This document shows positions 14,542-57,819 of a DNA stretch of 64,000 bases, one piece after another; the first letter of the stretch is position 1, and each line of letters begins with the position of its first letter. Under the pieces are notes generated by a model, which searched no databases, was not told where the DNA came from, and worked only from the letters and a program-made list of their open reading frames with translations. The translations under genes were made by a program, and so were the position numbers. The DNA is from an uncultured virus (IMG/VR IMGVR_UViG_3300005512_000015). Its lineage: Duplodnaviria; Heunggongvirae; Uroviricota; Caudoviricetes. Location: the IMG/VR virus record IMGVR_UViG_3300005512_000015. One strand, written 5' to 3'.

Positions 14542-15849
14542 TTAAAGCTCCTCAATCCAAAGTTGTTCAATAGATTTCTTAAGTAGTTCATCCAATTTAG
14601 ATTTGCTTACTTTGATATCATCTTGAAGCTTTGCCATACGTTCTTCAGTCAGTGAAAGAATATTCATATTCAATAGGTAATCATAAGAACCATCTTTTTG
14701 AATAATCTCTGTTACATTGTCAAGATCTTTTTCAATATCAGCTTTTTTACGTTTAGCAACTTTTAGTTTATCTTCAACAATCATTTTAATGAATAGATAT
14801 TTAGAAAAGTCAAACCTAATTTGTTCATCTAACTTGGCAGCAACATTATCTTTACGATCACTCATATAAGATAGTTTTACTTGGATGTAATGATCTATGA
14901 TTTCTTTAGCACCATCAAATACTTTGATTTTGTTATTCTCATCGATAACAGTATAGTTTTCTGATACCTTTTTAACTAGCTTAAGTTTAACAAGCAATTC
15001 ATCTTCAGACCATTGCTTTAGTAGCTTACTTGGAATAGTAACTTCAAAGTTGAAATTATCATCTTCAGATTTATCTTTGTAAGATTGAATAATCTTCTTA
15101 TCTTCCAAGTCATCAAGAACATTGATATAACTTTTTAAGTTATAACCAATCGGTACTTCAGTAATTTCTACTTTGTTGACACCTTTAGTTTTTACTACAC
15201 CTTTGATTAACCATTGAGCACTATGTTCACCTTGTTCAATAGTACCACCAAAGCCGTTGTAAAATGGTTCAAAACCATAACGAGGAGACTTACCTTCAAG
15301 TGTTGATTTGATGTAGTTTGTAATCTTAGCTGGATCACGTGGTAAAATCTTTTGGGCAAAACCAGATGATACACCTTCACTTCCATTAACTAATAGTATA
15401 GGTAATGAAGGAACATAGAACATTGGTTCAATTTGTTGTCCTTCAAAGAATTGATGCTTAAGGATAGCAGTATCTTCTTTCTTGAACAATTCAAAGAATT
15501 CAGGAGTACCATAAGTGTAGATATACCTTGATGCTGAAGCTTCTTGAGAGAACCTTGTACCAAAGTTACCTTTTTTCTGTAGTAGTGGAACGTTGTTTGT
15601 ACCTGGGAAATCTTGTCCAAGGTTAACAATAACACCATCAAGACTGCCATGTAGATATTCAGCAAACTCAGCTACCTTTGAACCAAGTTGAGATACCTTA
15701 ATTTTATCTTTAATGTTTTTCTCAAGGATTGTGTATAGAATTTTACGTGAACCGTTTTTCTGACCATCAACCAAAGAAGCAATCTTACGTAAGTTATCAT
15801 AAGATGCTTGGTCAACGTAATCCTTATTAAAAAATTCTGATATTTTCAT
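14542..15849 (-). CDS. gp52: DNA topoisomerase II medium subunit (gp52, GyrA/ParC-like)
   Basis: DGQKNGSRK, YLHG, GNFG, catalytic SRY, LLVNGSEG. Confidence 0.93.
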   Translation of the reverse strand: MKISEFFNKDYVDQASYDNLRKIASLVDGQKNGSRKILYTILEKNIKDKIKVSQLGSKVAEFAEYLHGSLDGVIVNLGQDFPGTNNVPLLQKKGNFGTRFSQEASASRYIYTYGTPEFFELFKKEDTAILKHQFFEGQQIEPMFYVPSLPILLVNGSEGVSSGFAQKILPRDPAKITNYIKSTLEGKSPRYGFEPFYNGFGGTIEQGEHSAQWLIKGVVKTKGVNKVEITEVPIGYNLKSYINVLDDLEDKKIIQSYKDKSEDDNFNFEVTIPSKLLKQWSEDELLVKLKLVKKVSENYTVIDENNKIKVFDGAKEIIDHYIQVKLSYMSDRKDNVAAKLDEQIRFDFSKYLFIKMIVEDKLKVAKRKKADIEKDLDNVTEIIQKDGSYDYLLNMNILSLTEERMAKLQDDIKVSKSKLDELLKKSIEQLWIEEL

Positions 15850-15985: not shown

Positions 15986-17785
15986 TTACAATTTAGCAAT
16001 ACTGAAGTCGTTATCAAGAATGTATTTTTTACGAGGTTCCGAATCATCACCAAGCCATTCATCAATAATCTTATCGTTATCAAACTCAAGGATGTTAATC
16101 ATTTTAGCTAATCCATCAGCTTTAACAACTTCCTTAAGATCATCGCTATCCCATGAACCTAAACCTTTGTAGTAGTTTGAATGTTCACCAGCTTTTAGTT
16201 TTACTTCATCACTAAGGTTATAATACCAAGATATCAATTTATCTTTCTTAGTAACACCAATAACTGGAGTTTGAAGCATACCAATTTTACCTTTAAGCTC
16301 AGGTAAGTATTTCACAAAGAATCCAGTCAATAGACCTCTAATATGATAACCATCCAAGTCTTGGTCAGTAGCATAAATGATGTATTGGTAATCTTCATTT
16401 TGAATGATCTTATAAAGCTCAGATAATTCTTTGTTTGCGGTGAACTTAGATTGTGCTGCACTATAAGCATTCAATGGTTTACCTTTAAGAGTATAATAAC
16501 CACATTCTTTACGACCAAGAACTGGAGATAAACCACCAAGTGCTGATTCACCTTCAACAAGTAGTAGATATTTCTTAACACCAATGCTTGGTAGATACTT
16601 ATCAGACTTAATCTTCTTAACAGTTTTTTGTAGACCTCTTAGTTCTTGACGCTTTTTGAACTCTTCCTTAATTCTATAAACTTCAGTGATAGGATCAATG
16701 ATGTCTTTATTACGGAAGATTTTATTAACGATTTGATCAAATGGAATATCACCAAAGTACTCATTAATTTCAGCAGTACCATTAGTAATCTTTTCTTTTG
16801 ATTGTGAATTGAACTTTGTATTCTTTACATTCTTAAGGAATGCAACAACCATTAATTTGTTTTTGATATCACCAGGTTTGATAGTCTTGAACTTTTTAGC
16901 AAGCTTATCCCTAAGACCCGATACAACATTGTGAACAATAATGTCAATGTGTGTACCACCATCAGGAATTTTAAGACCATTTACATAACTGAACTGACGA
17001 AAATCATCAGCTTCATTTGGAAGGATAGCAAATTTGTAATCCTCAGTTTCATAAATTTCAGAGCTGTCAGTAAACAGGCTGATGTATTTTTTGAATGAGT
17101 TTACATTAATTTTCTTACCATTGAACTTGAATGTAAGCTCAGGGAAAGACATAGATAAGTTGATTAGTCTTTGATAGATAACATTCATATGTACAGTATC
17201 AATAGCTTCTAAGCCAAACTTAGGTAGATCAGGCCAGAATTTTACATTAACTCCAGTTTTACCTTTTGCTTCATCAACTTTATCAGTAAATGATGCGGCA
17301 TTATCTTTGAATGTGATAGTGTAAGATTGTGAACCATCATTAGTTTTACCAACGAACTTCTTAGAGAAACAGTTAGTAGCAAATGAACCAACACCATTCA
17401 TACCAATTTGAGTACGATTTTTATCATCATCAAAGTTTGAACCAGCTCTGGCATGACCCCAAGCTAATTCAGCTAGGTGGTGTCCATCAACATTTTTTTG
17501 AACAGGAATACCTGTACCATTGTCAATAACCTCAACAGTATCATCAGTCATTTTAACTGAGATTTCATTACAACCTTTGAAGTTTGTTTTGATTGCGACA
17601 TCGACAGAGTTATCAATGATCTCGTTAATGATTTTGATTAGACCAGGTACGAAAGAAATTTCTTTGTACTGGATTTTGTTATCTTCAAAAACATATTCAC
17701 TAGATTTAGTAAGGTCAACAGCACCAATGTACATTGATGGTCGTTGAATAATATGTTCTCTTTCGGAAAGTTTACGTATGCTCAT
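15986..17785 (-). CDS. gp39: DNA topoisomerase II large subunit (fused gp39+gp60, GyrB-like)
   Basis: RPSMYIG, EIIDNSVD, GMNGVGS, EGESA, LKGK, DQDLDG, YKGLGS. Confidence 0.95.
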   Translation of the reverse strand: MSIRKLSEREHIIQRPSMYIGAVDLTKSSEYVFEDNKIQYKEISFVPGLIKIINEIIDNSVDVAIKTNFKGCNEISVKMTDDTVEVIDNGTGIPVQKNVDGHHLAELAWGHARAGSNFDDDKNRTQIGMNGVGSFATNCFSKKFVGKTNDGSQSYTITFKDNAASFTDKVDEAKGKTGVNVKFWPDLPKFGLEAIDTVHMNVIYQRLINLSMSFPELTFKFNGKKINVNSFKKYISLFTDSSEIYETEDYKFAILPNEADDFRQFSYVNGLKIPDGGTHIDIIVHNVVSGLRDKLAKKFKTIKPGDIKNKLMVVAFLKNVKNTKFNSQSKEKITNGTAEINEYFGDIPFDQIVNKIFRNKDIIDPITEVYRIKEEFKKRQELRGLQKTVKKIKSDKYLPSIGVKKYLLLVEGESALGGLSPVLGRKECGYYTLKGKPLNAYSAAQSKFTANKELSELYKIIQNEDYQYIIYATDQDLDGYHIRGLLTGFFVKYLPELKGKIGMLQTPVIGVTKKDKLISWYYNLSDEVKLKAGEHSNYYKGLGSWDSDDLKEVVKADGLAKMINILEFDNDKIIDEWLGDDSEPRKKYILDNDFSIAKL

Positions 17786-18298: not shown

Positions 18299-19291
18299 AT
18301 GATTCATCACGGAACTATAAGAAAATATACCGCTGCACTCCTAGACTTATTTAATGGAATAGAGATCCAGTACGAAGATAGTAATGGAACTACATTAAGT
18401 AGAAATATTCCAATTAAGTACAGTTCAAGAGAAAAGGCTAAGATTCTTGACGATTATACTTCAGAGCAATTGTTTTCCGGTAATACTAACGTATTACCTA
18501 GAGCCAATCTCGCAATGAGTACAATGGTAAAAGCAGATTCAAGAATTCAAAACAAAAATTTAAAAATTGCAAAAATCAAGACTGATGATACGTTTGAATA
18601 TATGTATAATTCAGTTCCATACGAATTTACATTCGAATTAACTTTCCAATGTAGAGGTATGAATGAAGCTTCTCAAATTGTAGAACAAATTGCTCCTAAA
18701 TTTAATCCAACAGTTAATATAGACGTTTGGGATGTTTCAAATTTAGATGAACCAACAAGAGTTCCAGTTAAGCTTTTAGATATTGGTTTTGAAACTGAAG
18801 AATATGACGATGTTTCATCTAACATTGTTATGATTAATATTGGTCTTTCTATAATGGGTAATTTATATCCACCGATTAAATCAAGTGGTCGAATTAAAGA
18901 ATTCAAAATGTACGTTAATGAACAACAAGGTAATTTCTTTAATAAGAAATCTATTCTAGGTTGGGACGTAGACGACAATGGCGAATTGACAAACTCTAAT
19001 ATGACACAAGTAACTGATACGGTTACATATGCACCATCATTAATTAGTATTAACTCTGAGAATACCGTTCAAGTTGGATTAAATAATCTAGTATTGATTT
19101 ATGAAGACAAGGATAATAAGTTATCTGAGTTGACTTTTGAATGGGATGTTATAAGTGGAAGTGCCGTAGTTGTTGGTGATTTAGATACTGCTGAATTAAC
19201 AGTTTCTGCAGTTGGTGATGTAGAAGTGCAAGTTACAATTACCGATGCATTTGGTAATTATAACTCACTTTCAAAAACATTTACAATTTAG
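18299..19291 (+). CDS. gp15: Tail terminator/sheath stabiliser gp15 with Ig-like C-terminal extension
   Basis: HGTIRKY...LF, IPIKY..REK, LPR, VPY.F.FEL, QIVEQI.P.FNP. Confidence 0.85.
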   Translation: MIHHGTIRKYTAALLDLFNGIEIQYEDSNGTTLSRNIPIKYSSREKAKILDDYTSEQLFSGNTNVLPRANLAMSTMVKADSRIQNKNLKIAKIKTDDTFEYMYNSVPYEFTFELTFQCRGMNEASQIVEQIAPKFNPTVNIDVWDVSNLDEPTRVPVKLLDIGFETEEYDDVSSNIVMINIGLSIMGNLYPPIKSSGRIKEFKMYVNEQQGNFFNKKSILGWDVDDNGELTNSNMTQVTDTVTYAPSLISINSENTVQVGLNNLVLIYEDKDNKLSELTFEWDVISGSAVVVGDLDTAELTVSAVGDVEVQVTITDAFGNYNSLSKTFTI

Positions 19292-19587
19292 ATAATAATT
19301 TTTGATTTTTCCTGGATTTCGATACCAGTGGTTGCTTTTAAATAAGCTTTTTCGATTTCTGGGAAATCTTCTAATGGTGAACTCCATATAACATTCATTG
19401 GATGAATCTGCACAGCACCTGGGCCATTACCTAGATCCAAAATACCGTAAGGCATAATGTTACCTTCTTTTGCTTGATATGGTTGCTTAATCAAAATTTC
19501 CTGACCATTAGCACTTTCAACTCCTTCCATATTACCAAAGATAATTTCTCCAGTAATTAACTTAATAACCTTCTTTACGTTTGCCAT
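19288..19587 (-). CDS. Hypothetical Sm-like protein
   Basis: KVIKLITGEIIFG N-terminus typical of small T4-like phage proteins. Confidence 0.65.
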   Translation of the reverse strand: MANVKKVIKLITGEIIFGNMEGVESANGQEILIKQPYQAKEGNIMPYGILDLGNGPGAVQIHPMNVIWSSPLEDFPEIEKAYLKATTGIEIQEKSKIII

Positions 19588-19601
19588 GTTTTTCCTTCGT
19601 T

Positions 19602-19781
19602 TTAGTTTTTGTATTTACTATCTGTGCACTCTTCACAATTCAGAATTTTATGTGCCTTACATTTTTTACCTTTTTCAAGATGCTTTGGTCTTTTAACTAA
19701 ATCTAGTTTTGTATCTACGGTTGCAATATCGGCAGATGTAGTTTCTTCTTTTAGTTTATTTAGATACTTCTTAAACTTCAT
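19602..19781 (-). CDS. 59-aa CTS-like protein with CxxHxxxxCxxC Zn motif
   Basis: Not in the track; MKFKKYLNKLKEETTSAD...CKAHKILNCEEC; AAGGA SD; AATAAATA box upstream. Confidence 0.65.
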   Translation of the reverse strand: MKFKKYLNKLKEETTSADIATVDTKLDLVKRPKHLEKGKKCKAHKILNCEECTDSKYKN

Positions 19782-19827
19782 TGTGACTTCCTTAGTATTG
19801 ATTTTATTATACTATATATTTATTTAA

Positions 19828-21090
19828 TTACTTCTTCATTTTGAAAGAGATTTTCTTATTCGCTGGATTCTTAATGTTTGAATCGAAGTGATATTTAAAT
19901 GTTGCTTCTTTAAATTCTTTAACAGTATATTTAAATGTTTTGGCACTTATGTCAAGATATAACTGTTGTGTGTTTAGACTATTAAGAGAATCATTCAAAA
20001 AGTCTACGTGATCTTTTATATTATTTATTTCGTCAATCATATGATAACCAAGTGGAGATAATATTACACCAGCTTTTTTACCAGATGCTTTAAATAATTT
20101 TTCAGCGTTTGCTTCATTTGGAAATCTTTTCATTACTTCCCAAACTGAACTAAATTGTGCTTTAACCTCATCATAAGTCATTGCTGATATTTGTTTTTCA
20201 AATTCAACGTGTGTTTTAATTTTACCACCAGCTTTAACAATTGCTTGATACCCAGGCGTTTTATAACGTTCACTAAATTCAACAATGGCGTCCATACCAG
20301 ATAGATCTTTTACATCAGTAATGAATTTAGCAGCTTTCTTATATTTAGCAGCTGATTTAATTAAACCTTCATTAATTAGTCCACTTACTGCGGTTAATGA
20401 TGGAGCAGCTCCTGCACCAGCTTTTGCTGATACATTAATCATACCACCATCTTTTGTACTAAAATAATAATCCACAAGTGCAGCATTAGAAGCTGCTGGA
20501 AAAGTTACAGAAACTGCTTCTTTATAATAATGTTTTATTGCCCATAGCGCACCAGTCAATTCACCAAAGTCTTTTGCAATAATATTAATATCAGCTTTAG
20601 AAACTCCCTCAGTATTAATTGATAGTTTATTTTTATAAGAACCTTCAATAAGATCTAGCACGGTGTGTCTAACAGATGCGTCAATACTATCAAGTGATTT
20701 GATTAGCGCGTCATATAGTTGTTTTTCTTTATAAGTATTACCAGCAAATCCTAAAGCATCTGGAGTTAATTGTTTTGTTTTTAATACACCATTATTACTT
20801 TTACCATTGTTAACTAAAAGTAATTCAGTTCCTTTAGGAATACCTGAAGAAGCTTTAGTTGTAACAATATTTTCAGTTCCATATTTTTGTGTTAAGCTTA
20901 CATCAGTATTTTTAAGTTCACATGGAACAATACCACTTAGAATATTTTTGGCAGCATCACCTAGTTCGGCCCTTAAATGAAACGCGTGTCGAGATAGGTT
21001 ATTCTTCATAACCTTAATCCCGGCTTTCTTCAATTCAGTTTCAAATAATTTATGTAACTTTTTAGTTGAAGTAGGTGTGTTATCAGCCAT
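19828..21090 (-). CDS. Putative PD-(D/E)XK-like nuclease
   Basis: DFGEL...FP..SN..LVDYY...VSAK restriction-fold pattern. Confidence 0.55.
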   Translation of the reverse strand: MADNTPTSTKKLHKLFETELKKAGIKVMKNNLSRHAFHLRAELGDAAKNILSGIVPCELKNTDVSLTQKYGTENIVTTKASSGIPKGTELLLVNNGKSNNGVLKTKQLTPDALGFAGNTYKEKQLYDALIKSLDSIDASVRHTVLDLIEGSYKNKLSINTEGVSKADINIIAKDFGELTGALWAIKHYYKEAVSVTFPAASNAALVDYYFSTKDGGMINVSAKAGAGAAPSLTAVSGLINEGLIKSAAKYKKAAKFITDVKDLSGMDAIVEFSERYKTPGYQAIVKAGGKIKTHVEFEKQISAMTYDEVKAQFSSVWEVMKRFPNEANAEKLFKASGKKAGVILSPLGYHMIDEINNIKDHVDFLNDSLNSLNTQQLYLDISAKTFKYTVKEFKEATFKYHFDSNIKNPANKKISFKMKK

Positions 21091-22598
21091 TAGTTATATG
21101 CCTTTTTGATCTCATTATACATCGAGTGCAATTCTTTTGGAGTATTTTTCTTAAAGAATTCTTCATCATCAATGTTTTCAATAACTTTAGATGCACTAAT
21201 GTCTGAATCAGTACGTGGCATTTCACGAACTTCAACACCAAGTCTACGCTTTAATTGTTCTTTGTAAGATCCAACTCTATCAGTACCAGCATATACAGCA
21301 TTAATATTGATAGGTGATTTACCAAGAATACCATTTAAGTTACCCGAACTATGATGAATGATTTCAACATTTGGGAATGCTTTCTTCATCATTTTTTCAC
21401 GTAGATCTTTTGTTTCTTTAGTATCTTTACCAGTTACAATACAAATAACAACATTGTCGTATAATGTACTAGCTCTTTTAATCATTTTAGCGTGGCCATC
21501 TTTAGTTAAAATTCTGAATTTACCAAGAATTAACGCGTTATTATTACCACGCATTTGTTTAACTAATAATGTCTTAGCATTTAATTGAATATCGTCTTTA
21601 ATCATAGCATCAGTTTTCTTACTATGCTTAAATTGAATTTTTAATTTCTTAAGTTCTAATGCTAGCTCTTCTAAAATATCATCAAGTTTTCTTGATTTAA
21701 CTACAATCGCATTACTTAATCTAAAAGCTTCACCATTAACATAAGTCCAGTAATTGTTTTCAATTTCTGGATCAGCTTCCATGTACTTACCTTTGATTTC
21801 TCTACGAGCAGCTTGATCTAATTGATATTCTTGTTGCCACTTAAGTATCTTATCTTGATACTTCATTACAACACCTTCTTCTTTACCACCATATTTAGAT
21901 TCAACATCTAAGAATAACTGACGTAAATCATCTATCAATAGTTCTGGGTTAGACCAGTTCATAGATAATTTTCTAGCTTCAAATTCAGCTTTTAAAGATT
22001 TAAGAATAGCACCCTTTTTAAATCCGATTTGACTTCCCATTACACCTTTGAATAGTAATTGTGGATGGTCAATTTTAAGTGCTTTAGCGTAATCATTACG
22101 TAAACCAGTTTGCATAGCACCCGGCATAGTTTTAAGAACACCATATTGTTCAGTCCATTTGGCTTTAGCATACCCAATAAGAACCATTTTATGTTTAGTA
22201 CTATAATCAGAACTTAATGTTGGTTTACTCATTAAGAATTCAATGAATAGCTCAGTTCCAACTGGAATAGAATTTTTGTTAAGTTTTGAAAAATGTTCGA
22301 ATACTAATTTGAATTGAGATGGACCAATTGATTCTTTCTTAATTTTAGTTTTAGCGTTAAAATCATATTCTTTGCTATATAGAATTTGACCTTTGTAAGC
22401 AAAGATATAATCGTTGATAGTACCTTTGTTGTCTTTCTTAATAACTGTTAATTTAATACCATCAGTCTTGTGTTCAACAACAACTTCAGACGATAGAAAA
22501 TCTTCAATTCTAGATTTGTTTGTTAGGTACTTACCAGCAGCTAGAATAGAAATATCTAACTGCTCTTTACCTTCGTTTAAGTATCTTAGAAAATCCAT
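21090..22598 (-). CDS. KxDG ligase-like nucleotidyltransferase fused to HxGH-class cytidylyltransferase-like domain; CTS start
   Basis: MDFLRYLNE; EHKTDG, FIEF, EEGVVMK, LKWQ; GKFRILTKDGH, AGTDR, ISASKV. Confidence 0.7.
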   Translation of the reverse strand: MDFLRYLNEGKEQLDISILAAGKYLTNKSRIEDFLSSEVVVEHKTDGIKLTVIKKDNKGTINDYIFAYKGQILYSKEYDFNAKTKIKKESIGPSQFKLVFEHFSKLNKNSIPVGTELFIEFLMSKPTLSSDYSTKHKMVLIGYAKAKWTEQYGVLKTMPGAMQTGLRNDYAKALKIDHPQLLFKGVMGSQIGFKKGAILKSLKAEFEARKLSMNWSNPELLIDDLRQLFLDVESKYGGKEEGVVMKYQDKILKWQQEYQLDQAARREIKGKYMEADPEIENNYWTYVNGEAFRLSNAIVVKSRKLDDILEELALELKKLKIQFKHSKKTDAMIKDDIQLNAKTLLVKQMRGNNNALILGKFRILTKDGHAKMIKRASTLYDNVVICIVTGKDTKETKDLREKMMKKAFPNVEIIHHSSGNLNGILGKSPININAVYAGTDRVGSYKEQLKRRLGVEVREMPRTDSDISASKVIENIDDEEFFKKNTPKELHSMYNEIKKAYN

Positions 22599-23801
22599 TT
22601 ACTTCTCCAAAGAGTTTAGGTAAGATCTGAACGTCTCATTAACTTTAGTGTATTTGCTGTAATATTCTTCAACGTATTTAGCTGATTCATCTTTCAATTT
22701 AAGTTCTTTTACAAGCTTAGAATAACCACTTGACTTAACTTGGAAATCAAGATCTGGGTTACCAACTTCTAATTCCTGACCTCTTTGACCTTTATAACCC
22801 CAAAGCATTTCAATATAACGATCGTGAGTACGTTGAATATCTTTTCTATCAAGGTGAGCTTTCATTAATTCAATAACACCAACGAAAGATTCAAATTTCT
22901 TAACATCTTGTTCATTACCAGTAAGTTGTCTAAAAGCTAACTTGTAAATTTCACCAACGATTGTTTCGTAGTTTGATTCACTAGTTTTAAGTTCACGATA
23001 AATTTGTTTACCTTCATCGTTTCTCATAACTTTGCTAGTTTCAGGATCGATCATTGGTTCATATGCTACACGAATACCACGAGTTACTGAGAACTTCAAT
23101 AGTCTTGGTAGTGAACCATTCATTTTTTTGAATTTTAGTTTTTCAGGAGTTGAAGCAGGAGTTGCAATAACAATATCGTCTCTAGCGGATGCTCCACCAA
23201 CGATAGCTTGAATTAAGAACTTGTGGTGTACAGCTTTAACTCCAGCTTTAGCATCTTTGAACGAAGAACTATGAGAAAACTTAGCCCATTCTGTTGGCAT
23301 ATCATCTTCAAAAGGAAGTAATTCAAAATCTACTTGAGCGTAAGCACGTTGACCATTTTTGAAATCAACCATAATTACCGCGTTAATTTGATCACCAAAT
23401 GCATCTTTATTACCACGGTTAGAACCCATGTATCTAGCACCAGGTAAAATTTCTTTACCTTCTAAATCATGTAAAAATTGCCATAAGTCTTGACCAATTT
23501 CTTCTGGTACAGTAATATCTAAATCACCAGCGCTTGGCTTGTATTGCATTACATCTTCATCAGATAAAGTTGGATCCATGATGAATGAAGTACTACCATT
23601 AAACGCAAAACCATTTGTTAGAATTTCTTCTTTAACCCAAATTGGTTTTTTGTATTTCTTTTTAAAATCTTTATTCATTTTCTTAAAGATTTCTACGAAC
23701 GTAGCAATAAACTCTTTACGTCCAATTTCTTTAACTTGTATCTTTTGTGCTCTGGTTTCTTCACCAGTTGTCCAATTCTTAGCTGTTACATTTCCACCCA
23801 T
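22599..23801 (-). CDS. Pol-beta-superfamily nucleotidyltransferase
   Basis: Start revised to MGGNV (GGAG SD); NGSTS...GDLDI (GS..DxD); third Asp in QVDF. Confidence 0.7.
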   Translation of the reverse strand: MGGNVTAKNWTTGEETRAQKIQVKEIGRKEFIATFVEIFKKMNKDFKKKYKKPIWVKEEILTNGFAFNGSTSFIMDPTLSDEDVMQYKPSAGDLDITVPEEIGQDLWQFLHDLEGKEILPGARYMGSNRGNKDAFGDQINAVIMVDFKNGQRAYAQVDFELLPFEDDMPTEWAKFSHSSSFKDAKAGVKAVHHKFLIQAIVGGASARDDIVIATPASTPEKLKFKKMNGSLPRLLKFSVTRGIRVAYEPMIDPETSKVMRNDEGKQIYRELKTSESNYETIVGEIYKLAFRQLTGNEQDVKKFESFVGVIELMKAHLDRKDIQRTHDRYIEMLWGYKGQRGQELEVGNPDLDFQVKSSGYSKLVKELKLKDESAKYVEEYYSKYTKVNETFRSYLNSLEK

Positions 23802-23829
23802 TGTGAACTCCAAATATTTATTTTAGTAT

Positions 23830-23875
23830 TATTTATATATGATCTATTATATCAAATAATGAGCGAAATGTAAAC
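23830..23875 (-). promoter_or_regulatory. Early promoter (23846-23875) plus late promoter TATAAATA (23830-23837)
   Basis: Both consensus motifs are exact. Confidence 0.75.
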
Positions 23876-23879
23876 GGTT

Positions 23880-24467
23880 TTAGTACTTATTTTGAAAGAA
23901 TTTCAAAATTTCTGGTTGTGTTAGTTCTTGAGGGTTGTAATCATTTGGTTTAAAATCAACACACATATTAATGCGCTCAAATCCATCGGGTTCCCATACA
24001 GTAGGATCTTTGTTATGAATATGACCGTGAATGATAGTATTAATTTTATTTTTATTAATTTTGAACATCATTGCCTTTTCAGGACCTTTGTTCCATTTAG
24101 ATTTGTAGCATGGATAGTGATTAATAAAGTAAGGTGGAATGTCAAAGTAATCAACAACGTCAATAAAACCAGCGTCTAAATAGAATTCATCTGGTTCATA
24201 GTCGTGATTACCTCTTACTAATATTTTTCGTCCCTTCATTAACTTTAACAAGCTTTGAAAATGTTCTTGTCTACCACGTAATGCAGCTGATAGATCGCCA
24301 ACAAATAAATGAATATCTTTGTCAGTAACAACATCATTATGCTTTTGAACCATATGTTTTGCGCAATCAATGACACAATTTTCGTCATCCAAGTCAAATG
24401 GTCTTTCAGCGTATTTGATTATATTTTTGTGGTAAAAATGGTGGTCACTACTGGCAAAAACTCTCAT
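23880..24467 (-). CDS. Calcineurin-like metallophosphoesterase
   Basis: SDHH, GD, GNHD, NHYP, HGHIH. Confidence 0.9.
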   Translation of the reverse strand: MRVFASSDHHFYHKNIIKYAERPFDLDDENCVIDCAKHMVQKHNDVVTDKDIHLFVGDLSAALRGRQEHFQSLLKLMKGRKILVRGNHDYEPDEFYLDAGFIDVVDYFDIPPYFINHYPCYKSKWNKGPEKAMMFKINKNKINTIIHGHIHNKDPTVWEPDGFERINMCVDFKPNDYNPQELTQPEILKFFQNKY

Positions 24468-24697
24468 TAAACATTAATCTCCTTATATTGAACAGGAACT
24501 AAACCAATAATATCAATATTCATAAAGATGTTGTTTAAATACTGTTCATCCAACATTTTATCATCTGGATTTCTTTGAATGTGTTCATTTTGAGCTAATA
24601 GTTTCATATTAAATTCTGAAAGTTCTTTTTCAGAAATAACAATTGAACTCACATATCTTACATTATTATTTTTATCTTCTATTAGTAATTGGTACAT
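24467..24697 (-). CDS. Hypothetical protein
   Basis: ORF with GAGG SD, coupled to the next gene. Confidence 0.65.
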   Translation of the reverse strand: MYQLLIEDKNNNVRYVSSIVISEKELSEFNMKLLAQNEHIQRNPDDKMLDEQYLNNIFMNIDIIGLVPVQYKEINV

Positions 24698-24707
24698 TTA
24701 ATTTCCT

Positions 24708-24881
24708 CTATTCGTATGTTATTGTAAATGTTTTATGTTTTTTATAGAAAGTCTCTATTTTCATCCAGTTTTTTAATGTCCATTCATCGCCATAAACAAA
24801 TTTGTATTTACCATTTTGAGTGTTAGTAACTACAGCTAATTCATTTGCTCGTTTATGCTTGTACACTTTCTTTACAGCCAT
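24708..24881 (-). CDS. 57-aa hypothetical protein
   Basis: Not in the track; MAVKKVYKHKRANEL...; GGAG SD; fills the gap. Confidence 0.5.
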   Translation of the reverse strand: MAVKKVYKHKRANELAVVTNTQNGKYKFVYGDEWTLKNWMKIETFYKKHKTFTITYE

Positions 24882-25402
24882 TCTGGTTTCTCCCTATTAG
24901 TATATTTTAGCATTGCTGCTTTTTCCATAATATAGTAAGTTCTATAAGCAGTTACAGAATCAGCATCTTTACAATAATCTGGCATTGCTTGAGGCATTTT
25001 AGTTAAACCGATATTAGGAATATTTTTTGGAATTTTATCAAGCACGTTTTCTAACTTAGTTTGCGTTAAGTGGATTTTACCATATCTAAATGTGTACTCG
25101 TTACATAAAGCCATAAAGTGCTGATATAACCACTCGTAATTTTCCTTAGATGCTCTAGCCCATACTGCTGATGGATGATTGATATGTGTAGCTTTGTAGA
25201 TAATTTCTTCTTTAGCTGGATCACTTAGTTTCCATCTTTTAAGTTTTCTACCGGATGAAGCATCAATCCACATTTCACCATCTAAGAACCTATGCGCAGT
25301 AGATAAAAGTTGTGCACATTCAATAATCATTTTAACAACATGTTTGTCACAATTCATTTGAGCTGCTTTAACTGGATTAGTATCTAAGTAAAAAATATTC
25401 AT
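24872..25402 (-). CDS. Pyrimidine-dimer DNA glycosylase/DenV-related family protein
   Basis: MNIFYLD, CDKHVVKM..E.AQLLS, YKATHINHPS..W. Confidence 0.8.
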   Translation of the reverse strand: MNIFYLDTNPVKAAQMNCDKHVVKMIIECAQLLSTAHRFLDGEMWIDASSGRKLKRWKLSDPAKEEIIYKATHINHPSAVWARASKENYEWLYQHFMALCNEYTFRYGKIHLTQTKLENVLDKIPKNIPNIGLTKMPQAMPDYCKDADSVTAYRTYYIMEKAAMLKYTNREKPEWL

Positions 25403-25433
25403 TGATTAAACCTTTATTTAATTTGTTAGATCT

Positions 25434-25463
25434 ATTATAACAAGTCTTTTATGAAATGTAAAC
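25434..25463 (-). promoter_or_regulatory. Early promoter GTTTACA-N17-TATAAT
   Basis: Consensus match. Confidence 0.75.
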
Positions 25464-25478
25464 AGTTTTTTACTTTTT

Positions 25479-25811
25479 TTATAGATATGTTAAACTGCTC
25501 CAAATAGTATCTGGTTCCATTAAGTCAACAACGTCTCCGTGCTGCATTGTTATTTGATTATATGGCGATGCCATACTATGATGTAAGCCATAACTATGTT
25601 TACTAACACAATATGTACTACCTGACGAACCAGAAAACTCATAGTGATTTTCAAATTCTTCAAACTTAGTAATACCACTGTTCAATCTCCAACTGGTACC
25701 AGTTAAATATGAAGAATCCCAACCGGCAAGAACCTTATAAATTGTCTCATCGCCATAATTAATTTTTAAAACTACCCAATGATCTGGGGTATAGTTAGAA
25801 TTTAATCTCAT
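25479..25811 (-). CDS. Conserved phage hypothetical protein
   Basis: PDHWVVLKI, YKVLAGW, SWRLNSGI, GSSGSTY. Confidence 0.75.
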   Translation of the reverse strand: MRLNSNYTPDHWVVLKINYGDETIYKVLAGWDSSYLTGTSWRLNSGITKFEEFENHYEFSGSSGSTYCVSKHSYGLHHSMASPYNQITMQHGDVVDLMEPDTIWSSLTYL

Positions 25812-25830
25812 GTTAACTCCTTTTTGTTCA

Positions 25831-25860
25831 TATAAATAATTATAACAAAAAAGTAATTAA
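25831..25860. promoter_or_regulatory. Adjacent opposite-strand promoters: late TATAAATA (+, 25831-25838) and TTAA-N12-TATAAT (-, 25839-25860)
   Basis: Exact motifs between two divergent genes. Confidence 0.65.
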
Positions 25861-25874
25861 AAAAGAAGGAATTC

Positions 25875-27692
25875 ATGGAAAATATCAGGACAATATTTGA
25901 CGAAGAAACTATTGAACATTTTCGTCAAAATAAAGATGAGATTACAGAGGAACTTTTAGAAAAGCTTCGTTCTCATGGTAATGAAGGAAAGCATATTGCA
26001 TTAGAAATTCTAGATCTTGAAAAAGACAATGAACAATACTACCTTGATGCCTTTGGAAATCGTATTTCATTTAATGGTAATAGACGACTTAAGAAAGCTT
26101 TTACTAAATTAAGTATATCAGAAATTCATAAAATAGAACTCCAAAAATGTGCTGAAGACATTCATTATTTTAAAGACAATTATGTGAAAATTAAAACCAA
26201 ACAAGGTGTAAACTTTCCAGATTTAAGACCATACCAAGATGAATTCATTAATGAAATCATCCCAGATGAAAATGAAGATAATATTGGATTAATGGGTAGA
26301 CAGTCCGGTAAATCTATTAGTACTGCAATTTATCTTGCGCATAAATTCAACTTTGACAAAGAAATTAATATCGGTATTGTAGCCAACAAAGGACCAATGG
26401 CTCGTGAATTCCTAGCAAATACTAAAAACATTATTATTGAGTTACCTATATGGATGCAGCAAGGTGTTCAAGTTTGGAATAAAGGTTCAATTGAAAATGA
26501 ATCAAAGATGAGAATATTAACAGATGTTCCAACATCAGATGCGTTTCGTGGATTTACAATTGCTATTCTAGTCGTGGATGAGACAGCATTTATCAAGTCA
26601 ACCGTTTGGGACGAGTTCGCTGATTCTATTTTCCCATCACAATCTGGTCTTGCTTGGAAAAAGAATATTATGTTGAGTACCGCCAATGGTATGAACCACT
26701 TTTATCAAATGGTTAAGGGTGCTCGTGAAGGGTTAAACGGTATGAATCTATTTGAAGTTGACTGGAGAGATGTTCCAAGATATAAACCAGATGGTTCATT
26801 AATGTCTCCTGAAGAATTCCAAGAAAAAATTATTGCTAAACACGGTATCATTTATTTTAACCAAAACTACGCTAATGAATTTATGGGATCTTCTCATACA
26901 TTGATTAGTGCTAAAATGCTTCAAGAAATGAAAGAAGCAGAAGTACAAGAAATTAGAGATGGTAAGCTAAAAATATATCATTATCCAGAAGCAGGACATA
27001 AGTATATCTTTACAGTTGATCCAGCCAAAGATGGACAAGATGCATTTGCTTGTCAAATTATCGACATCACAAACTTTAAATTTAAACAAGTCGCAACAGC
27101 ACAATTACAAATTGATTATCTGTTAATGCCAGAGTTTATAAATGAGTGGTGCGAATATTACAATAATCCATATTTGGTTATTGAGAATAATGAAGGCGCA
27201 GGACAAAGTATCGCTGACCAAATGTACAACGATTACGAATATGAGAATCTTCATTATGACAAAGATGTAGGAAGAAACAAAAAGAAAAAATATCCAGGAT
27301 TTAGAACTACTCCAAAATCTAGAAAACAAATTCTTCAGACATTGAAATTATTCATCGAGAACGGTAACCTTGAAATAAATGATAAGAGTACTATTAACGA
27401 GTTTTATCAATTCATTTTGATTAACAACAAATTCCAGGCAGATGATGGCGCACATGATGACATGATTATGTCACTAGCTCTAGCATTCGTGCCATTTACA
27501 AATAGTAAAAACTTTGAGGATATGAAGGTCCTTATTAAGAACCTTTATGATTCAGAATCTTTAGAAGAGTCTGAAAAAGTTGAGTTTGGAGAATTGTTAA
27601 CTGTTGGTTCATTTGATGACGGATCCGATGAAGAATATCTTGAGAATAGATCTCAAGAAACTTGGAATGGTCATCTTATAAACTATGAATGA
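25875..27692 (+). CDS. gp17: Terminase large subunit gp17
   Basis: LRPYQ, GRQSGKS, VVDETAF, STANG.NHFY, VDPA, HDDMIM. Confidence 0.95.
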   Translation: MENIRTIFDEETIEHFRQNKDEITEELLEKLRSHGNEGKHIALEILDLEKDNEQYYLDAFGNRISFNGNRRLKKAFTKLSISEIHKIELQKCAEDIHYFKDNYVKIKTKQGVNFPDLRPYQDEFINEIIPDENEDNIGLMGRQSGKSISTAIYLAHKFNFDKEINIGIVANKGPMAREFLANTKNIIIELPIWMQQGVQVWNKGSIENESKMRILTDVPTSDAFRGFTIAILVVDETAFIKSTVWDEFADSIFPSQSGLAWKKNIMLSTANGMNHFYQMVKGAREGLNGMNLFEVDWRDVPRYKPDGSLMSPEEFQEKIIAKHGIIYFNQNYANEFMGSSHTLISAKMLQEMKEAEVQEIRDGKLKIYHYPEAGHKYIFTVDPAKDGQDAFACQIIDITNFKFKQVATAQLQIDYLLMPEFINEWCEYYNNPYLVIENNEGAGQSIADQMYNDYEYENLHYDKDVGRNKKKKYPGFRTTPKSRKQILQTLKLFIENGNLEINDKSTINEFYQFILINNKFQADDGAHDDMIMSLALAFVPFTNSKNFEDMKVLIKNLYDSESLEESEKVEFGELLTVGSFDDGSDEEYLENRSQETWNGHLINYE

Positions 27693-27961: not shown

Positions 27962-28498
27962 TTATGCGTTTTTGCGCTTCTTAACTTTATGTGTGCCCTT
28001 CTTAATAGCTGAAGCTCTAGACTTTTGGTATGCTGCAATCTTAGCTTTATTAGCTCTATAATATCTTTTACGAGAAGCTTTGTTTGCTCTAGCATCTTTC
28101 TTTCTTGCTGCTTTAGTTTTTCTTAAATCAGCTTTAGAATTTTTCATGAACTTACGTTTTTTACGATTTTTGTTAGTACCTTTCATAATACGAGAAACGC
28201 CTTCGTCCATTTCAGACTCTTCGTCTTCTTCGTCCTCTAATTCTTCAAGCATATCATAAATGTCTTGGTACATATCTGGACCAAGTTCTTTTACCATTTT
28301 CATTACATCTTCTTTGGTAAAAGTATCAATTTCGTCTTGTTCATTTTCATCATCTTCATCAAAGAATTCGTTATAGATGATATAACCGAATTGATCAACT
28401 TCATCTTCGGTTAGCTCGTCTAATTCTTCAATGATTTTAGCAAGCATTTCCTCATTTTCTTTCAAATAAGTTTTAAAAGTGCCCATATTGTTCTCCAT
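27962..28498 (-). CDS. Acidic/basic bipartite CTS protein, prohead-core-like
   Basis: MGTFKTYLKE; acidic N-half, Lys/Arg-rich C-half after MDE; late promoter at 28513-28520. Confidence 0.6.
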   Translation of the reverse strand: MENNMGTFKTYLKENEEMLAKIIEELDELTEDEVDQFGYIIYNEFFDEDDENEQDEIDTFTKEDVMKMVKELGPDMYQDIYDMLEELEDEEDEESEMDEGVSRIMKGTNKNRKKRKFMKNSKADLRKTKAARKKDARANKASRKRYYRANKAKIAAYQKSRASAIKKGTHKVKKRKNA

Positions 28499-32815: not shown

Positions 32816-33748
32816 TTACCAGTCATCTAGTTCTTGAGTTTCTTTTTCTAAGTCATAGTTCATTGGTTCAACCATAAGCATAAGAGGTTTTAAGAAATTC
32901 TTTTCAAAGTTTGTGTCATAATCAACACAATCACATTTTGCGATTTCATTTACAAAACTATCATTAGTAAACGCCACAATATTACTGTTGAACATGTTGG
33001 GCGTTTGTAAGAAGATACGTTTACATTTGTCTCCAGCTTGGATAGGTGCAAATTTATCAGTAAGATTGTTTTCTTCAATGTACATGTTATGACGTAAAGC
33101 AGCACGTGAACCAATTGGAACAGTATCTTTTTCAAGGTCATAATCAAGACGTGATACACCACCAACTGCTGCAATCATATTAAGATCAACAGTAGTAAAT
33201 TCCTGTTTGATATCCTTTACCCAATTGCGTAGATCAGATTCATCTTTATCCAAGATGTGCGGAATAGCTTGCTTAAGATATTTTTGAGACCATTTGGGTG
33301 TACTTGACTTAATAATTTCAAGACCCATAACTTTAATCTTAGGTGAATCACTTGGATAACGAGTACCTTCATTATCTCTTACACGAGCGTAGTACTTTTT
33401 CTTAGCAGTGAATACGGCAGCATCAGCAATGATTTCACGTTCACAACCAATTTTATCACGATTGTATGCATTCAATTCATCAGCAAAATCCTCAATAGTC
33501 TTTTGAATAGTTGGTTGAATAACCTTTTGCTCAAAGTTATCAGCCCAAGTAACATACTCATTAATATCAAGACCAGGGTTTTTAGCCATATACATTTCTA
33601 CAAAAGGCTCGATGTGATAGTATACGGAATTATGTACCAAAATATTATTACCAAAAAAGTTATGATTGCCTTCCACTTCTATATCATATACCCATTCTTC
33701 TTGAATGCCTAAATCTTCAATTTCAAAATTATCGCAAACTTCCATCAT
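32816..33748 (-). CDS. gp43: Split-intein C-half (about 40 aa) fused to DNA polymerase B C-terminal part
   Basis: VYDIEV..NHNFF.NNILVHN/SVY; AKKKYYA, KVMGLEIIKSSTP; ends LDDW. Confidence 0.93.
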   Translation of the reverse strand: MMEVCDNFEIEDLGIQEEWVYDIEVEGNHNFFGNNILVHNSVYYHIEPFVEMYMAKNPGLDINEYVTWADNFEQKVIQPTIQKTIEDFADELNAYNRDKIGCEREIIADAAVFTAKKKYYARVRDNEGTRYPSDSPKIKVMGLEIIKSSTPKWSQKYLKQAIPHILDKDESDLRNWVKDIKQEFTTVDLNMIAAVGGVSRLDYDLEKDTVPIGSRAALRHNMYIEENNLTDKFAPIQAGDKCKRIFLQTPNMFNSNIVAFTNDSFVNEIAKCDCVDYDTNFEKNFLKPLMLMVEPMNYDLEKETQELDDW

Positions 33749-33777: not shown

Positions 33778-33799
33778 ATTATATCATAAGTTTATTTAA
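33778..33799 (-). promoter_or_regulatory. TTAA-N12-TATAAT promoter of IntC-pol
   Basis: Repeated motif. Confidence 0.6.
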
Positions 33800-34478
33800 A
33801 TTTACAATTATCGAAGTGCCATTGTTTCATCGCGCTACCTTTTCCTTCTTTTCCACAATGTGGGCATTTAACCGTTGGTTGATTTTTAAGTCTTTTCTTT
33901 GCGGCCTCTGACATTTTCTTTTTTTGTTCTTCGGATTTAGGTTTACCTTTCATTTTTTTAGAAAGGCTTTCTGCTTGTTTTGCTTTAGCTTGTTTACCTT
34001 CTTCCGTTTCTAACCATTTTTTGTTGGCTTCTATGATTTTTTTCTTTGCTTCGGGAGTATGTGTTTTTCCATACATACCATTCTTTTCCCCCTTTGAGGC
34101 ACGTTTTTTATTTATTTCATCTATTTCTTCTTGGGATTTTCCATTTTTCCAAAGTGCTTTACCAAAATTTGAGTTATTTTCTCCAGATGAATCAATGTGT
34201 GAAAACGAACCAAAACCGCCCAACGTCATATTATATGACATTTTATCATTCACGACATCTTCTGTTATCAATTCATTTTCCTTTTCTTTCATTTCTTCAT
34301 CAGTTTTGAACACAAAAAGAACTTCTTTTTCGAAGTTTTCTTTACCGTATTTTTCTATTGCTTTTTTCAATGCCACGCCTGAACCCAAATAATTATCATT
34401 CGGGTTTTTTGTTCTATGCATCCCTATATAATACTTTCCGTTTGTTTTGTTTATTGTTTTGTATATTGTGTAATTCAT
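33792..34478 (-). mobile_element. Free-standing GIY-YIG (Seg-like) homing endonuclease with NUMOD3 repeats
   Basis: IYKT.N..NGKYYIG, YLGSG, YN...GG, NGMYGKTHT, C-terminal CPHC. Confidence 0.92.
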
Positions 34479-34496: not shown

Positions 34497-35171
34497 CTAA
34501 ACTGAATCGGTAACAATTTTGATTAATTTATCTGATTTCAACACATCTTTTGGTTTTATTTCAATAAGTTTATCATCACGTACCACCATCATAGAGTGGT
34601 CTTCGGTAATAGTAACTTCATCACCATTGCATTTGATTTTATACATTCTTTTTTTAACTTTATGCTTCATAACATAGTTGATATTGTTATATTGTAATTC
34701 TTTATCCTTTGAAACTGAAGCAGCTTTAATTGGTATTTTTACATGCTTAATAAAGTTATGTTTACCACGAACCTCGATATCACCATCTAAATCTTTATAT
34801 AAATCTTCTATTGGAATATCACCATTATTTGTTTTAATTAATGTCGACCCTATTACTGAATCAGTATCACCATAAACAATATAAGGCTTTTCAGATGCGT
34901 GTAGCTTTTGAAGTGTTTCCTCAATATACTTAGCTAGCTTTTGGATAAAGTAACGACCATTACCGGTGATAGCTGCAGCCATTTCTTCATTGAACAGCGG
35001 GAACCACCGATTGGCCATGGCACCGTACAATGAGTTGATCATTGTTTTTTCAACTAATTGCTTAGTGTTATATAACGATTCACCATTTTGAGCTTGTTCA
35101 AGTAGTTCCTCGAGTTCTTCTTTGGGTAAAGACCGTAATTCATCTTCAGTATATTCTAATACGTTTTTCAT
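34497..35171 (-). CDS. gp43: DNA polymerase B middle part (motifs B and C) fused to a 120-aa split-intein N-half (34500-34859)
   Basis: KTMINSLYG, YGDTD/SVIGST, intein block B ITEDHS. Confidence 0.93.
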   Translation of the reverse strand: MKNVLEYTEDELRSLPKEELEELLEQAQNGESLYNTKQLVEKTMINSLYGAMANRWFPLFNEEMAAAITGNGRYFIQKLAKYIEETLQKLHASEKPYIVYGDTDSVIGSTLIKTNNGDIPIEDLYKDLDGDIEVRGKHNFIKHVKIPIKAASVSKDKELQYNNINYVMKHKVKKRMYKIKCNGDEVTITEDHSMMVVRDDKLIEIKPKDVLKSDKLIKIVTDSV

Positions 35172-40121: not shown

Positions 40122-40420
40122 TTTATAGTAAGCCCTTATACAACCACCGCCTGCCGAAGCTTCGAGAGGAATTACATATAAAGATTCACTAATCATATTT
40201 CAATCATTATAGTGGCGAATAATGATAACACTTCCACTTAATTTCTAGTGTTCTGATTTATAGTATCGTACTAGGAACAACACTTGCTTTCTAATTCAGA
40301 CCATAACCTAAATTATCAAACTTACCCGTAAATTTAAGCATACCCTTATGGAGGTGTACTTGCCAGTAGGTAGTGGGTCAATCTGCTCTACTGGTGAGTT
40401 TGGTGCTATGTCGGCTTATT
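40122..40420 (+). ncRNA. Candidate structured RNA B (strand uncertain)
   Basis: Terminal helix and several internal helices; TGnTATACT at 40107-40115; no ORF. Confidence 0.5.
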
Positions 40421-56432: not shown

Positions 56433-56434
56433 TT

Positions 56435-57817: not shown

Positions 57818-57819
57818 GT

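Follow-up and report, generated by a model that had tools for sequence, protein, structure and literature searches.

A viral fusion of a family X DNA polymerase (PolX) and a ligase is described in PMC5537341 as carrying out base-excision repair, and in the account given in PMC5397189 a nick-sealing RNA ligase was proposed to act on genomic nicks left after ribonucleotide gap filling. Internal proteins of T4 are described as being loaded into the head via a capsid-targeting sequence (CTS) that forms about ten residues of the N-terminus and is later cut off (bioRxiv 10.1101/2021.01.19.427310; PMC3012670), and the virion proteomes presented in PMC9146016 and PMC10665884 list cytidylyltransferases of T4-like cyanophages (S-SZBM1_140 and S-CREM2 ORF154), a family whose role is called unclear in the part of PMC9146016 that concerns it. 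We analysed a stretch of 64,000 nucleotides, hereafter the 64-kb window, of an uncultured T4-like marine phage (IMG/VR record IMGVR_UViG_3300005512_000015), together with loci from related phages. In this window three abutting genes, designated g1, g2 and g3, encode a polymerase-X-like nucleotidyltransferase, a T4 RNA ligase 2 (Rnl2)-like ligase fused to a nucleotidyltransferase of the HIGH superfamily, and a probable PD-(D/E)XK nuclease. We hypothesize, with a probability that we estimate at roughly 0.45, that this row works as a break-repair kit for duplex nucleic acid, most likely for the DNA of the phage itself, by healing, filling and sealing the breaks.

The gene row

The row and its bordering elements are all located on the minus strand (aa, amino acids; nt, nucleotides).

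23801-22599 (-): g1, Pol-beta-superfamily nucleotidyltransferase, 400 aa, with predicted palm and thumb like those of family X polymerases
22598-21090 (-): g2, fusion of a ligase and a HIGH nucleotidyltransferase, 502 aa
21090-19828 (-): g3, probable PD-(D/E)XK nuclease, 420 aa, with an E...D...SxK signature; member of a large phage family without a Pfam match
24467-23880 (-): metallophosphoesterase, 195 aa, candidate 3'-end healing enzyme, directly upstream of g1 (Pfam Metallophos, 2e-9; phrog_547, 3e-27)
24872-25402 (-): gene of a DenV-like pyrimidine-dimer DNA glycosylase (Pfam Pyr_excise PF03013, E 1e-5, 26.2 bits, cut-off 23)
23874-23846 (-): early-type sigma-70-like promoter before g1 (TTTACA-17-TATAAT with an upstream TG, 11/12), a consensus match only
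23837-23830 (-): TATAAATA late-promoter-like box, 36 nt from the start of the box to the ATG of g1

A first-pass annotation of this stretch had described three abutting genes with TAA-ATG and TAATG junctions, an early and a late promoter, and a metallophosphoesterase directly upstream, and each of these features was found again. The g1/g2 junction is gagaagTAAATGgat, of the TAA-ATG type, and the g2/g3 junction is aactaATGgct, a TAATG overlap that would couple g3 translationally to g2. The list of open reading frames (ORFs) gives a TTG at 23813 as the start of g1; the ATG at 23801, preceded by GGAG, is likelier. Both promoter-like elements are held in the gap of 66 nt upstream of g1. Only two sigma-70-like sites at 11/12 are present within 19500-26000, the second of which (25462-25434) precedes the DenV-like gene; promoter-like sites in total show no excess (29 found versus 32.5 expected in shuffles). 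The TATAAATA box is likewise not enriched in the window (12 found versus 13.5 expected). Since 10 of its 12 copies precede an ATG on their own strand by 13-55 nt, with head, tail-sheath-stabiliser and terminase genes among those concerned, we read it as a late promoter of the window phage. The DenV-like gene is taken as context and as a possible upstream step of the pathway, and the only match of the metallophosphoesterase among solved structures is the uncharacterised aq_1665 (1xm7, 2e-8).

Two small ORFs (orf59, 19602-19781, and orf99, 19288-19587, both on the minus strand) come after the module in the window, an arrangement shared by many relatives; orf59 begins with a CTS-like peptide and contains a Cys-rich KKCKAHKILNCEEC stretch.

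A polymerase-X-like nucleotidyltransferase

Residue conservation was followed in 50 sequences for g1, 47 for g2 and 104 for g3 (the g3 set at 20-53% identity), and the key catalytic residues proved to be invariant among the homologues of all three. In g1 these residues are G69, S70, D93, D95 and D158 (50/50 sequences), corresponding to the GS pair and the three catalytic carboxylates of the Pol-beta palm, that is, to the GS...DxD...D motifs already noticed at first pass. The AlphaFold model (pLDDT, the predicted local distance difference test, of 91.8) supports a Pol-beta fold, and its structural neighbours are polymerases and RNA or oligonucleotide transferases. As modelled, g1 appears closest to the gap-filling polymerases of family X, which are templated and have a thumb. 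Searches against PDB sequences, with the single sequence and with profiles, returned nothing, and the neighbours among predicted viral structures are uncharacterised phage proteins.

Both ends of the g1 protein carry conserved peptides. The N-terminus is MGGN, with G2, G3 and N4 invariant and the start methionine conserved in at least 90% of the sequences. The C-terminus is an ESFRxYL-type tail (residues 385-400; ...FRSYLNSLEK in the window) that resembles the leader of g2 and is present, under a loose pattern, in 39 of the 50 sequences. More than 350 relatives of g1 were found in public metagenomes at 90% clustering, and likewise more than 350 of g2.

A ligase fused to a HIGH nucleotidyltransferase

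The g2 protein is divided into a leader and two domains.

22598-22572 (-): residues 1-9, MDFLRYLNE, T4-CTS-like leader
22550-21549 (-): residues ~17-350, Rnl2-like nick-sealing ligase, with nucleotidyltransferase domain and helical C-domain (Foldseek, invariant motifs)
21548-21093 (-): residues ~351-502, nucleotidyltransferase domain of the HIGH superfamily (PPAT/NMNAT-like)

The model of g2 has a pLDDT of 89.7, with residues 1-16 below 50. It matched T4 Rnl2 (2hvr, 2hvq) with Foldseek E-values of 7e-7 to 4e-6 over 359-370 columns, for a chain of about 319 residues, and the match spans both the nucleotidyltransferase and the C-terminal helical domains of g2. The ligase residues K44, D46 and G47 (KxDG), E241 and G242 (EG) and K253 are invariant in the 47 sequences; the EG pair presumably corresponds to motif IV and K253 to the motif V lysine. 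Pfam RNA_ligase (PF09414) was matched by 6 of the 47 homologues at E <=0.01, and by the window protein not even at E <=0.1.

The C-terminal domain was assigned to the HIGH superfamily (PF01467) by its Rossmann fold and its (T/H)xGH and ISxxK/R-type motifs, and G359, K360, H369, G438, D440, R441, I467, S468 and A469 are invariant, again in 47 sequences. Pfam CTP_transf_like was matched by 41 of the 47 homologues, and homologues carry source annotations as NMNAT, PPAT or glycerol-3-phosphate cytidylyltransferase. The fusion of ligase motifs to an HxGH-class domain, proposed at first pass, is thus supported by invariant residues and by the structural match to T4 Rnl2.

Xanthomonas phage X1 has the two halves in distinct genes that overlap, one encoding a 286-aa protein with KLDG and EGVV and the other a 162-aa HIGH nucleotidyltransferase that the g2 profile detects, which argues that the fusion is a working partnership. 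The 286-aa protein may be called ligase-like by these motifs and its position alone; hhalign comparisons of profiles with individual sequences (two X1 proteins, of 335 and 286 aa, and a Vibrio phage Va1 protein of 264 aa) gave no support. Some relatives of g2 (L038, 1914-3839, and L041, 7953-9902), of 642-650 aa, have about 150 extra C-terminal residues without a family assignment.

A putative nuclease and a parallel gene triad

We identified E177, D207, K223 and G227 as the sole invariant residues in the g3 family (104 sequences), with S221 (at least 90%) and G176 nearly so. Their order and spacing are those of a PD-(D/E)XK core in which a serine takes the place of the usual acidic residue, and g3 is, judged by these residues, probably a PD-(D/E)XK nuclease. 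The restriction-like D...SAK core that the first-pass annotation had named is upheld by conservation only; neither single-sequence nor profile searches of g3 gave a Pfam, PHROG or PDB sequence match. Pfam also returned nothing for 28 longer or divergent members of the family, so that no clue came from a fused domain. The family is large, with 741 representatives at 50% clustering. An Atlas search (model pLDDT 0.49) gave template-modelling (TM) scores of 0.28-0.31 to PDDEXK_1 clusters, below the thresholds of the search itself, and an Atlas feature search pointed to MspI-like and HaeIII-like (restriction enzyme) clusters; both are leads only.

The surroundings of the g3 family were analysed in 80 loci, 55 of which extend at least 2.5 kb downstream of g3. 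A KxDG ligase-like DUF6267 protein and/or a HIGH nucleotidyltransferase adjoins the g3 family in 57 of the 80 loci, and in 48 of the 55 with sufficient downstream sequence. The KxDG protein (380-430 aa) was assigned to Pfam DUF6267 (PF19782) in all eight cases tested, and PDB sequence searches with DUF6267 returned nothing; the HIGH nucleotidyltransferase (~200 aa) is the "cytidylyltransferase" of T4-like cyanophages, present in 558 phage records, mostly of cyanophages. The two are fused together in five g3-family loci. In cyanophage S-SZBM1 the triad stands in a row, with a g3-family protein (_142, profile E 7.9e-16), DUF6267 (_141, 3.7e-130) and the cytidylyltransferase (_140). A HAD-type "polynucleotide kinase" PHROG neighbour is present in 23 of the 80 loci and a DenV-like gene in 16, and no polymerase-X-like gene was found in any of them. 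The S-SZBM1/cyanophage cytidylyltransferase was not matched by the g2 profile at E up to 10 and is not an orthologue of the g2 domain. S-RIM2 gp174, which had by eye looked like a g3 relative, was dropped, as the g3-family profile finds no member in S-RIM2.

Given the 57 of 80 loci and the S-SZBM1 row, a nuclease-like protein, a ligase-like protein and a HIGH nucleotidyltransferase form a recurring set. In the clade of the window an Rnl2-like ligase is present instead of DUF6267, and the polymerase-X-like g1 is added.

The neighbourhood of g2 in relatives

We collected 43 viral-contig loci that encode a g2 relative, including the window's own contig, of which 33 have at least 1.5 kb upstream and are informative for g1. 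In 28 of these 33 (window contig counted) g1 shares the strand of g2 and is located upstream of it at a distance of no more than 3 kb. The five exceptions are three Campylobacter phages, one locus in which g1 is downstream of g2 on the opposite strand (L017) and one with a g1 fragment only (L019, E 1e-4). The three-gene unit put forward at first pass is looser in these loci than had been suggested; the place of g3 in it is weighed below.

A metallophosphoesterase homologue is near g2 in 13 of the 43 loci. A P-loop kinase of about 175-182 aa, with Pfam AAA_33 and Zeta_toxin matches, is near g2 in 12 and is once fused to the N-terminus of g2 (L037). Its best PDB matches are the 171-residue entries 4gp7 and 4jst (E 4.6e-5) and T4 Pnk (E 0.007). 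We take 4gp7 and 4jst, labelled "Metallophosphoesterase" in the PDB table, to be the Clostridium thermocellum Pnkp kinase domain. DenV-like homologues are encoded upstream of g1 in Vibrio phage Va1 and in two further loci (L006, L010). In relatives, the position that follows g2 or separates g1 from g2 is occupied by many ORFs of 260-520 aa that are unrelated to one another and lack any Pfam match. In one locus (L027, 4693-6713) a 426-aa g3 homologue directly precedes an N6_N4 DNA methylase (Pfam 5e-39), and the genes are arranged as phosphoesterase, g3, methylase, g1 and g2.

The leader and probable capsid loading

Cleavage of T4 CTS peptides follows the rule (L/I)xE. The first-pass annotation had pointed to CTS-like peptides at the C-terminus of g1 and the N-terminus of g2, and both are present; MDFLRYLNE of g2 shares with the T4 CTS the pattern of aromatic and aliphatic residues and the final glutamate. 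The pattern [FYW]xx[FYW][LIV]xE, starting within the first six residues, was found in 4 of the 108 ORFs of the window (0.3 expected from the rate elsewhere) and a looser form in 7 of the 108 (0.7 expected), with two further cases if an internal ATG is the true start. Among homologues, the leader motif is present in 28 of 47 g2 proteins, 33 of 48 DUF6267 proteins, 19 of 45 cytidylyltransferases and most stand-alone kinases. At least three window proteins with the leader or its looser form sit behind TATAAATA boxes.

1545-1775, 1786-2436, 2436-2603, 2616-2882, 19602-19781, 27962-28498, 39455-40072 and 40416-41024 (all -): small or unknown proteins with CTS-like starts

Judged by these starts, of which MKFSEFLNE, MKFKQFLQE and MGQFKEFLNE are examples, the proteins are candidate internal or ejected proteins. 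The ORF 1786-2463 matched both Pfam DUF5824 and phrog_3041 ("cytidyltransferase"), the latter in its C-terminal part. We also considered FxxYLxE as a sliding-clamp motif, which is less likely, as the peptide fits the T4 CTS including its final glutamate, and as the split polymerase ends in ELDDW and the RNase H-like exonuclease in DDFGW. These two C-termini (32816-33748 and 6314-7417, both on the minus strand) are possibly the clamp-binding tails of the clade.

Virion mass spectrometry supports capsid loading of the cyanophage cytidylyltransferase family, and by analogy g2 may be loaded as well. The T4-type leader on g2, together with early- and late-type promoters, makes it probable that part of the kit is loaded into heads and injected with the genome.

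A proposal for healing, filling and sealing breaks

A phosphoesterase (with a kinase in relatives), a polymerase-X-like enzyme, a nick-sealing ligase and a nuclease make up the toolkit of single-strand-break or short-patch repair. In the proposed sequence of events, the metallophosphoesterase would clean blocked 3' ends and, in relatives, the Pnkp-like kinase would phosphorylate 5' ends; g1, to judge by its fold and catalytic residues, would then add one or a few nucleotides at the gap, possibly ribonucleotides, and the Rnl2-like domain of g2 would seal the nick via lysyl-adenosine monophosphate (AMP) on K44. The PPAT/NMNAT-like domain of g2 would transfer AMP to a phosphate monoester, which may be the 5'-phosphate at the break (an AppN end being made or reversed) or a cofactor precursor such as nicotinamide mononucleotide (NMN). 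The pairing of the HIGH domain with two different ligase families suggests, in fact, that the acceptor is either a 5'-phosphate at a break or a ligase cofactor. The g3 protein would incise or trim. Some of the kit may be injected with the genome, and the adjoining DenV-like glycosylase suggests ultraviolet (UV) lesions as one source of the breaks. Phage DNA is favoured as the substrate because the nearest folds of g1 are templated gap fillers, because g2 is of the duplex-nick ligase type, because a DenV-like glycosylase and a nuclease are neighbours, and because loading into the capsid is best understood for enzymes whose task lies on the genome as it enters. Of the functions suggested at first pass, the repair of nucleic acid ends has gained support from the Rnl2-like g2, the family-X-like g1 and the kinase or phosphoesterase of relatives.

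A more specific version holds that the repair kit is preloaded in the head, injected, and mends UV lesions, nicks or entry damage before phage genes are expressed, with the HIGH domain making or reversing AppN at polynucleotide 5'-phosphates. We know of no member of the HIGH superfamily that acts on polynucleotide 5'-phosphate ends (AppN), and we regard this version, taken as a whole, as decidedly unlikely. If true, the same logic would explain the "cytidylyltransferase" gene of the 558 phage records.

Several observations weigh against a DNA break-repair kit. The structural matches of g1 are middling (Z at most 8.0, with Foldseek giving no PDB match at an E-value of 0.001 or lower); no Pfam family was matched by g1 at E <=0.1, and no polymerase X domain was detected in its 50 homologues at E <=0.05. 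Classically, Rnl2-family ligases, Pnk-like kinases and phosphoesterases belong to RNA repair and not to DNA repair, and the proposal offers no explanation of why the ligase would need a fused HIGH nucleotidyltransferase. Concerning the neighbourhood, g1 and g2 are about 65 kb apart in the Campylobacter phages, the kinase profile, searched up to E 10, found no homologue in the 64-kb window, and only 3 of the 43 IMG/VR loci have a DenV-like gene close to g2. The synteny counts are, moreover, inflated by shared ancestry: the loci come from related phages and overstate the number of independent events. As for head loading, no N-terminal leader was found on g1, g3 or the phosphoesterase, and the cytidylyltransferase seen by mass spectrometry of virions is one that escapes the g2 profile. 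The first-pass claim that the module is packaged therefore stands in part, carried by the leader on g2, the enrichment of the motif and the presence of an analogous cytidylyltransferase in virions, and falls short on these last two points. Finally, g3 accompanies g1-g2 in only 2 of the 43 loci, in one of which it precedes the N6/N4 DNA methylase mentioned above, so that the three-gene unit does not extend to g3 in most relatives.

This last count is the starting point for regarding g3 as lying outside the g1-g2 unit, as a separately mobile nuclease of restriction or homing type in a variable slot downstream of g2, where many unrelated ORFs are found in relatives; the methylase that follows g3 in L027 keeps a restriction-type reading alive, and the MspI-like and HaeIII-like Atlas clusters add leads. 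On the other side, a ligase-like protein and a HIGH nucleotidyltransferase stand beside the g3 family in 57 of 80 loci, no methylase was seen among the recurrent neighbour clusters scanned, the triad is found also in S-SZBM1, and the TAATG overlap couples g3 to g2 translationally. We consider a separate g3 somewhat unlikely, and g3 as the nuclease of a restriction-modification pair was set aside, since a methylase is beside g3 in one locus only. The main rival concerns the substrate: the row may be an RNA-repair counter-defence for transfer RNA (tRNA) cut by a host anticodon nuclease, with the phosphoesterase (and kinase) healing the ends, g1 restoring a nucleotide in the manner of RlaP and the Rnl2-like ligase resealing. 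Consistent with this, g2 belongs structurally to the Rnl2 RNA-ligase family, and the kinase of relatives resembles the Pnkp/Hen1 RNA repair kinase and T4 Pnk. Phages pair RNA ligases with RlaP, kinases and phosphoesterases, and a refill after RloC has been proposed, as described in parts of PMC7824862; RlaP itself, in the experiments summarised in PMC12776372, adds one or two nucleoside monophosphates to damaged RNA and is inactive on DNA. Nevertheless, the RlaP profile (PF10127) was matched neither by g1 nor by any of its 50 homologues, and the folds nearest to g1 belong to DNA polymerases that fill gaps on a template and possess a thumb, not to RNA-specific enzymes. The C-domain of g2 is of the Rnl2 type, used for duplex nicks. 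Rnl1-type ligases are the ones that act on breaks in tRNA anticodon loops. It is not obvious how a PD-(D/E)XK-like nuclease, a DenV-like neighbour and capsid loading would fit into tRNA repair, and no tRNA nuclease target is known for the window phage. We hold tRNA repair to be unlikely.

A different emphasis makes the HIGH domain the point of the module, its product being a small molecule (nicotinamide adenine dinucleotide (NAD+), some coenzyme, a sugar or alcohol activated for DNA hypermodification, a signal or a decoy) that the ligase and the Pol-beta enzyme serve. The annotations of the homologues given above and a DNA-modification-type gene cluster at 53843-61222 would suit such a role, as would the use of NAD+ by the viral PolX-ligase, as reported in PMC5537341. 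In many phages, however, the HIGH domain has a ligase as its fusion partner or neighbour, and two different ligase families take this place, which speaks for a shared macromolecular substrate and not for a metabolite pool; the catalytic residues of ligase and polymerase are all kept; among the structural matches of g1, none of cyclase type or specific to CD-NTases ranked higher than the family X polymerases; and 70 window ORFs scanned against PHROGs, in which Nampt- and NadV-like genes were not specifically sought, revealed no NAD+ salvage partner. A small-molecule product is in our view highly unlikely. Injected effectors that nucleotidylate (AMPylate) host proteins appear extremely improbable: the CTS-like leader of g2 would fit them, and Pol-beta-fold enzymes can modify proteins, but no structural match to a protein-AMPylating family stood out, the neighbours of g1 being polymerases and RNA or oligonucleotide transferases, and ligase and kinase partners fit polynucleotide ends. 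The nucleotide signal, the decoy and the host-protein modification that the first-pass annotation had offered beside repair thus found no result in their support.

Genomic context of the window

The window is AT-rich (about 32% GC). PHROGs and Pfam scans named T4-like genes for a helicase, the clamp, the clamp loader, a split DNA polymerase and a prohead protease, as well as the following.

14542-15849 and 15986-17785: two topoisomerase II subunits
18299-19291: gp15
25875-27692: large terminase

The closest terminases to that of the window are those of Vibrio phages pv27, phiTY18 and phiKT1024 (68.5% identity), followed by those of Campylobacter firehammerviruses (~50%). Megablast of the module region against phage records gave no match, and the record nearest to the window, a 20-kb fragment (G001), has no PF09414 match. 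The T4-type DNA polymerase is spread over three ORFs on the minus strand (36219-37817, 34497-35171 and 32816-33748), and a homing-endonuclease ORF (33792-34478; phrog_314, 1.5e-55) with its own TATAAATA box is located between the latter two. A gene cluster at 53843-61222 on the minus strand suggests modified DNA and includes the genes listed here, with a MazG-like gene just upstream.

60899-61222 (-): dATP/dGTP-pyrophosphohydrolase-like gene
60235-60954 (-): thymidylate-synthase-like gene
59344-59724 (-): HAD-type "polynucleotide kinase / phosphoheptose isomerase" PHROG match
57820-59343 (-): 507-aa protein, phrog_24015
55083-56432 (-): glucosyltransferase-like gene
53843-55198 (-): methyltransferase-like gene
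52589-53017: MazG-like gene, just upstream of the cluster

Comparison with known systems

In a literature search that left the supplementary tables of cyanophage papers outside its scope, we found no paper that gives a function to proteins of the g1, g2 or g3 families or to the cytidylyltransferase, or that describes the g2 fusion. If the break-repair kit is confirmed, it would provide a biological context for ligases of the T4 Rnl2 type, add a polymerase-X-like enzyme to the repair repertoire of phages, show that phages inject nucleic-acid repair enzymes, and could reveal a new chemistry of HIGH nucleotidyltransferases. Repair of sunlight damage bears directly on the rate at which marine phages lose infectivity, and a compact set of ligase, polymerase and adenylyltransferase may serve as a reagent.

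The best solved match of residues ~17-350 of g2 is T4 Rnl2 (gp24.1), which, like g2, is phage-encoded and a nick-sealing type of ligase and has KxDG, EG and a helical domain at its C-terminus. Unlike Rnl2, g2 has in addition the C-terminal HIGH domain and a CTS-like leader, and in the window it is too divergent for PF09414. The biological role of T4 Rnl2 is, to our knowledge, not known. RlaP (PF10127; for example T4 NrdC.11) resembles g1 as a Pol-beta nucleotidyltransferase whose gene is beside that of an RNA ligase, with kinases or phosphoesterases nearby, as indicated in PMC7824862 and PMC12776372. It differs in its profile, which g1 does not match, and in that the nearest folds of g1 are of family X; no RlaP entry is among the structural matches listed, although the two may be similar. 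Compared with African swine fever virus (ASFV) Pol X (PDB 5hr9) and the PolX-ligase fusion of Phaeocystis globosa virus, g1 is longer at its C-terminus by about 200 residues, its partner g2 is Rnl2-like and not a DNA or NAD+ ligase, and no apurinic/apyrimidinic (AP) endonuclease was identified. Deinococcus radiodurans DraRnl (Rnl5), according to the description in PMC5397189, seals duplex nicks and has been proposed to close those that a ribonucleotide-incorporating repair polymerase leaves in the genome, the same logic as would apply to g1 and g2, although it is a cellular enzyme of the Rnl5 family without a fused nucleotidyltransferase.

Clostridium thermocellum Pnkp (kinase, metallophosphoesterase and ligase-like; Pnkp/Hen1) unites the same set of activities in one unit, and the kinases of relatives match 4gp7/4jst. 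Here the genes are separate, the window has no kinase and no Hen1 methyltransferase is present, whereas a polymerase-X-like enzyme and a HIGH nucleotidyltransferase are added. The cytidylyltransferase and DUF6267 of T4-like cyanophages (S-SZBM1_140/_141, S-RIM2 gp176/gp175) differ from g2 in that DUF6267 is not Rnl2-like, the cytidylyltransferase is missed by the g2 profile and their 80 loci lack a polymerase-X-like gene. They are alike in that a KxDG protein is paired with a HIGH nucleotidyltransferase, the two being fused in some cases and accompanied in many by a g3-family protein, and in their CTS-like leaders. As regards the CTS-loaded internal proteins and Alt of T4, the presumed cargo of the window phage differs in consisting of nucleic-acid enzymes, but an N-terminal peptide of about ten residues and of the same pattern is carried by several window proteins.

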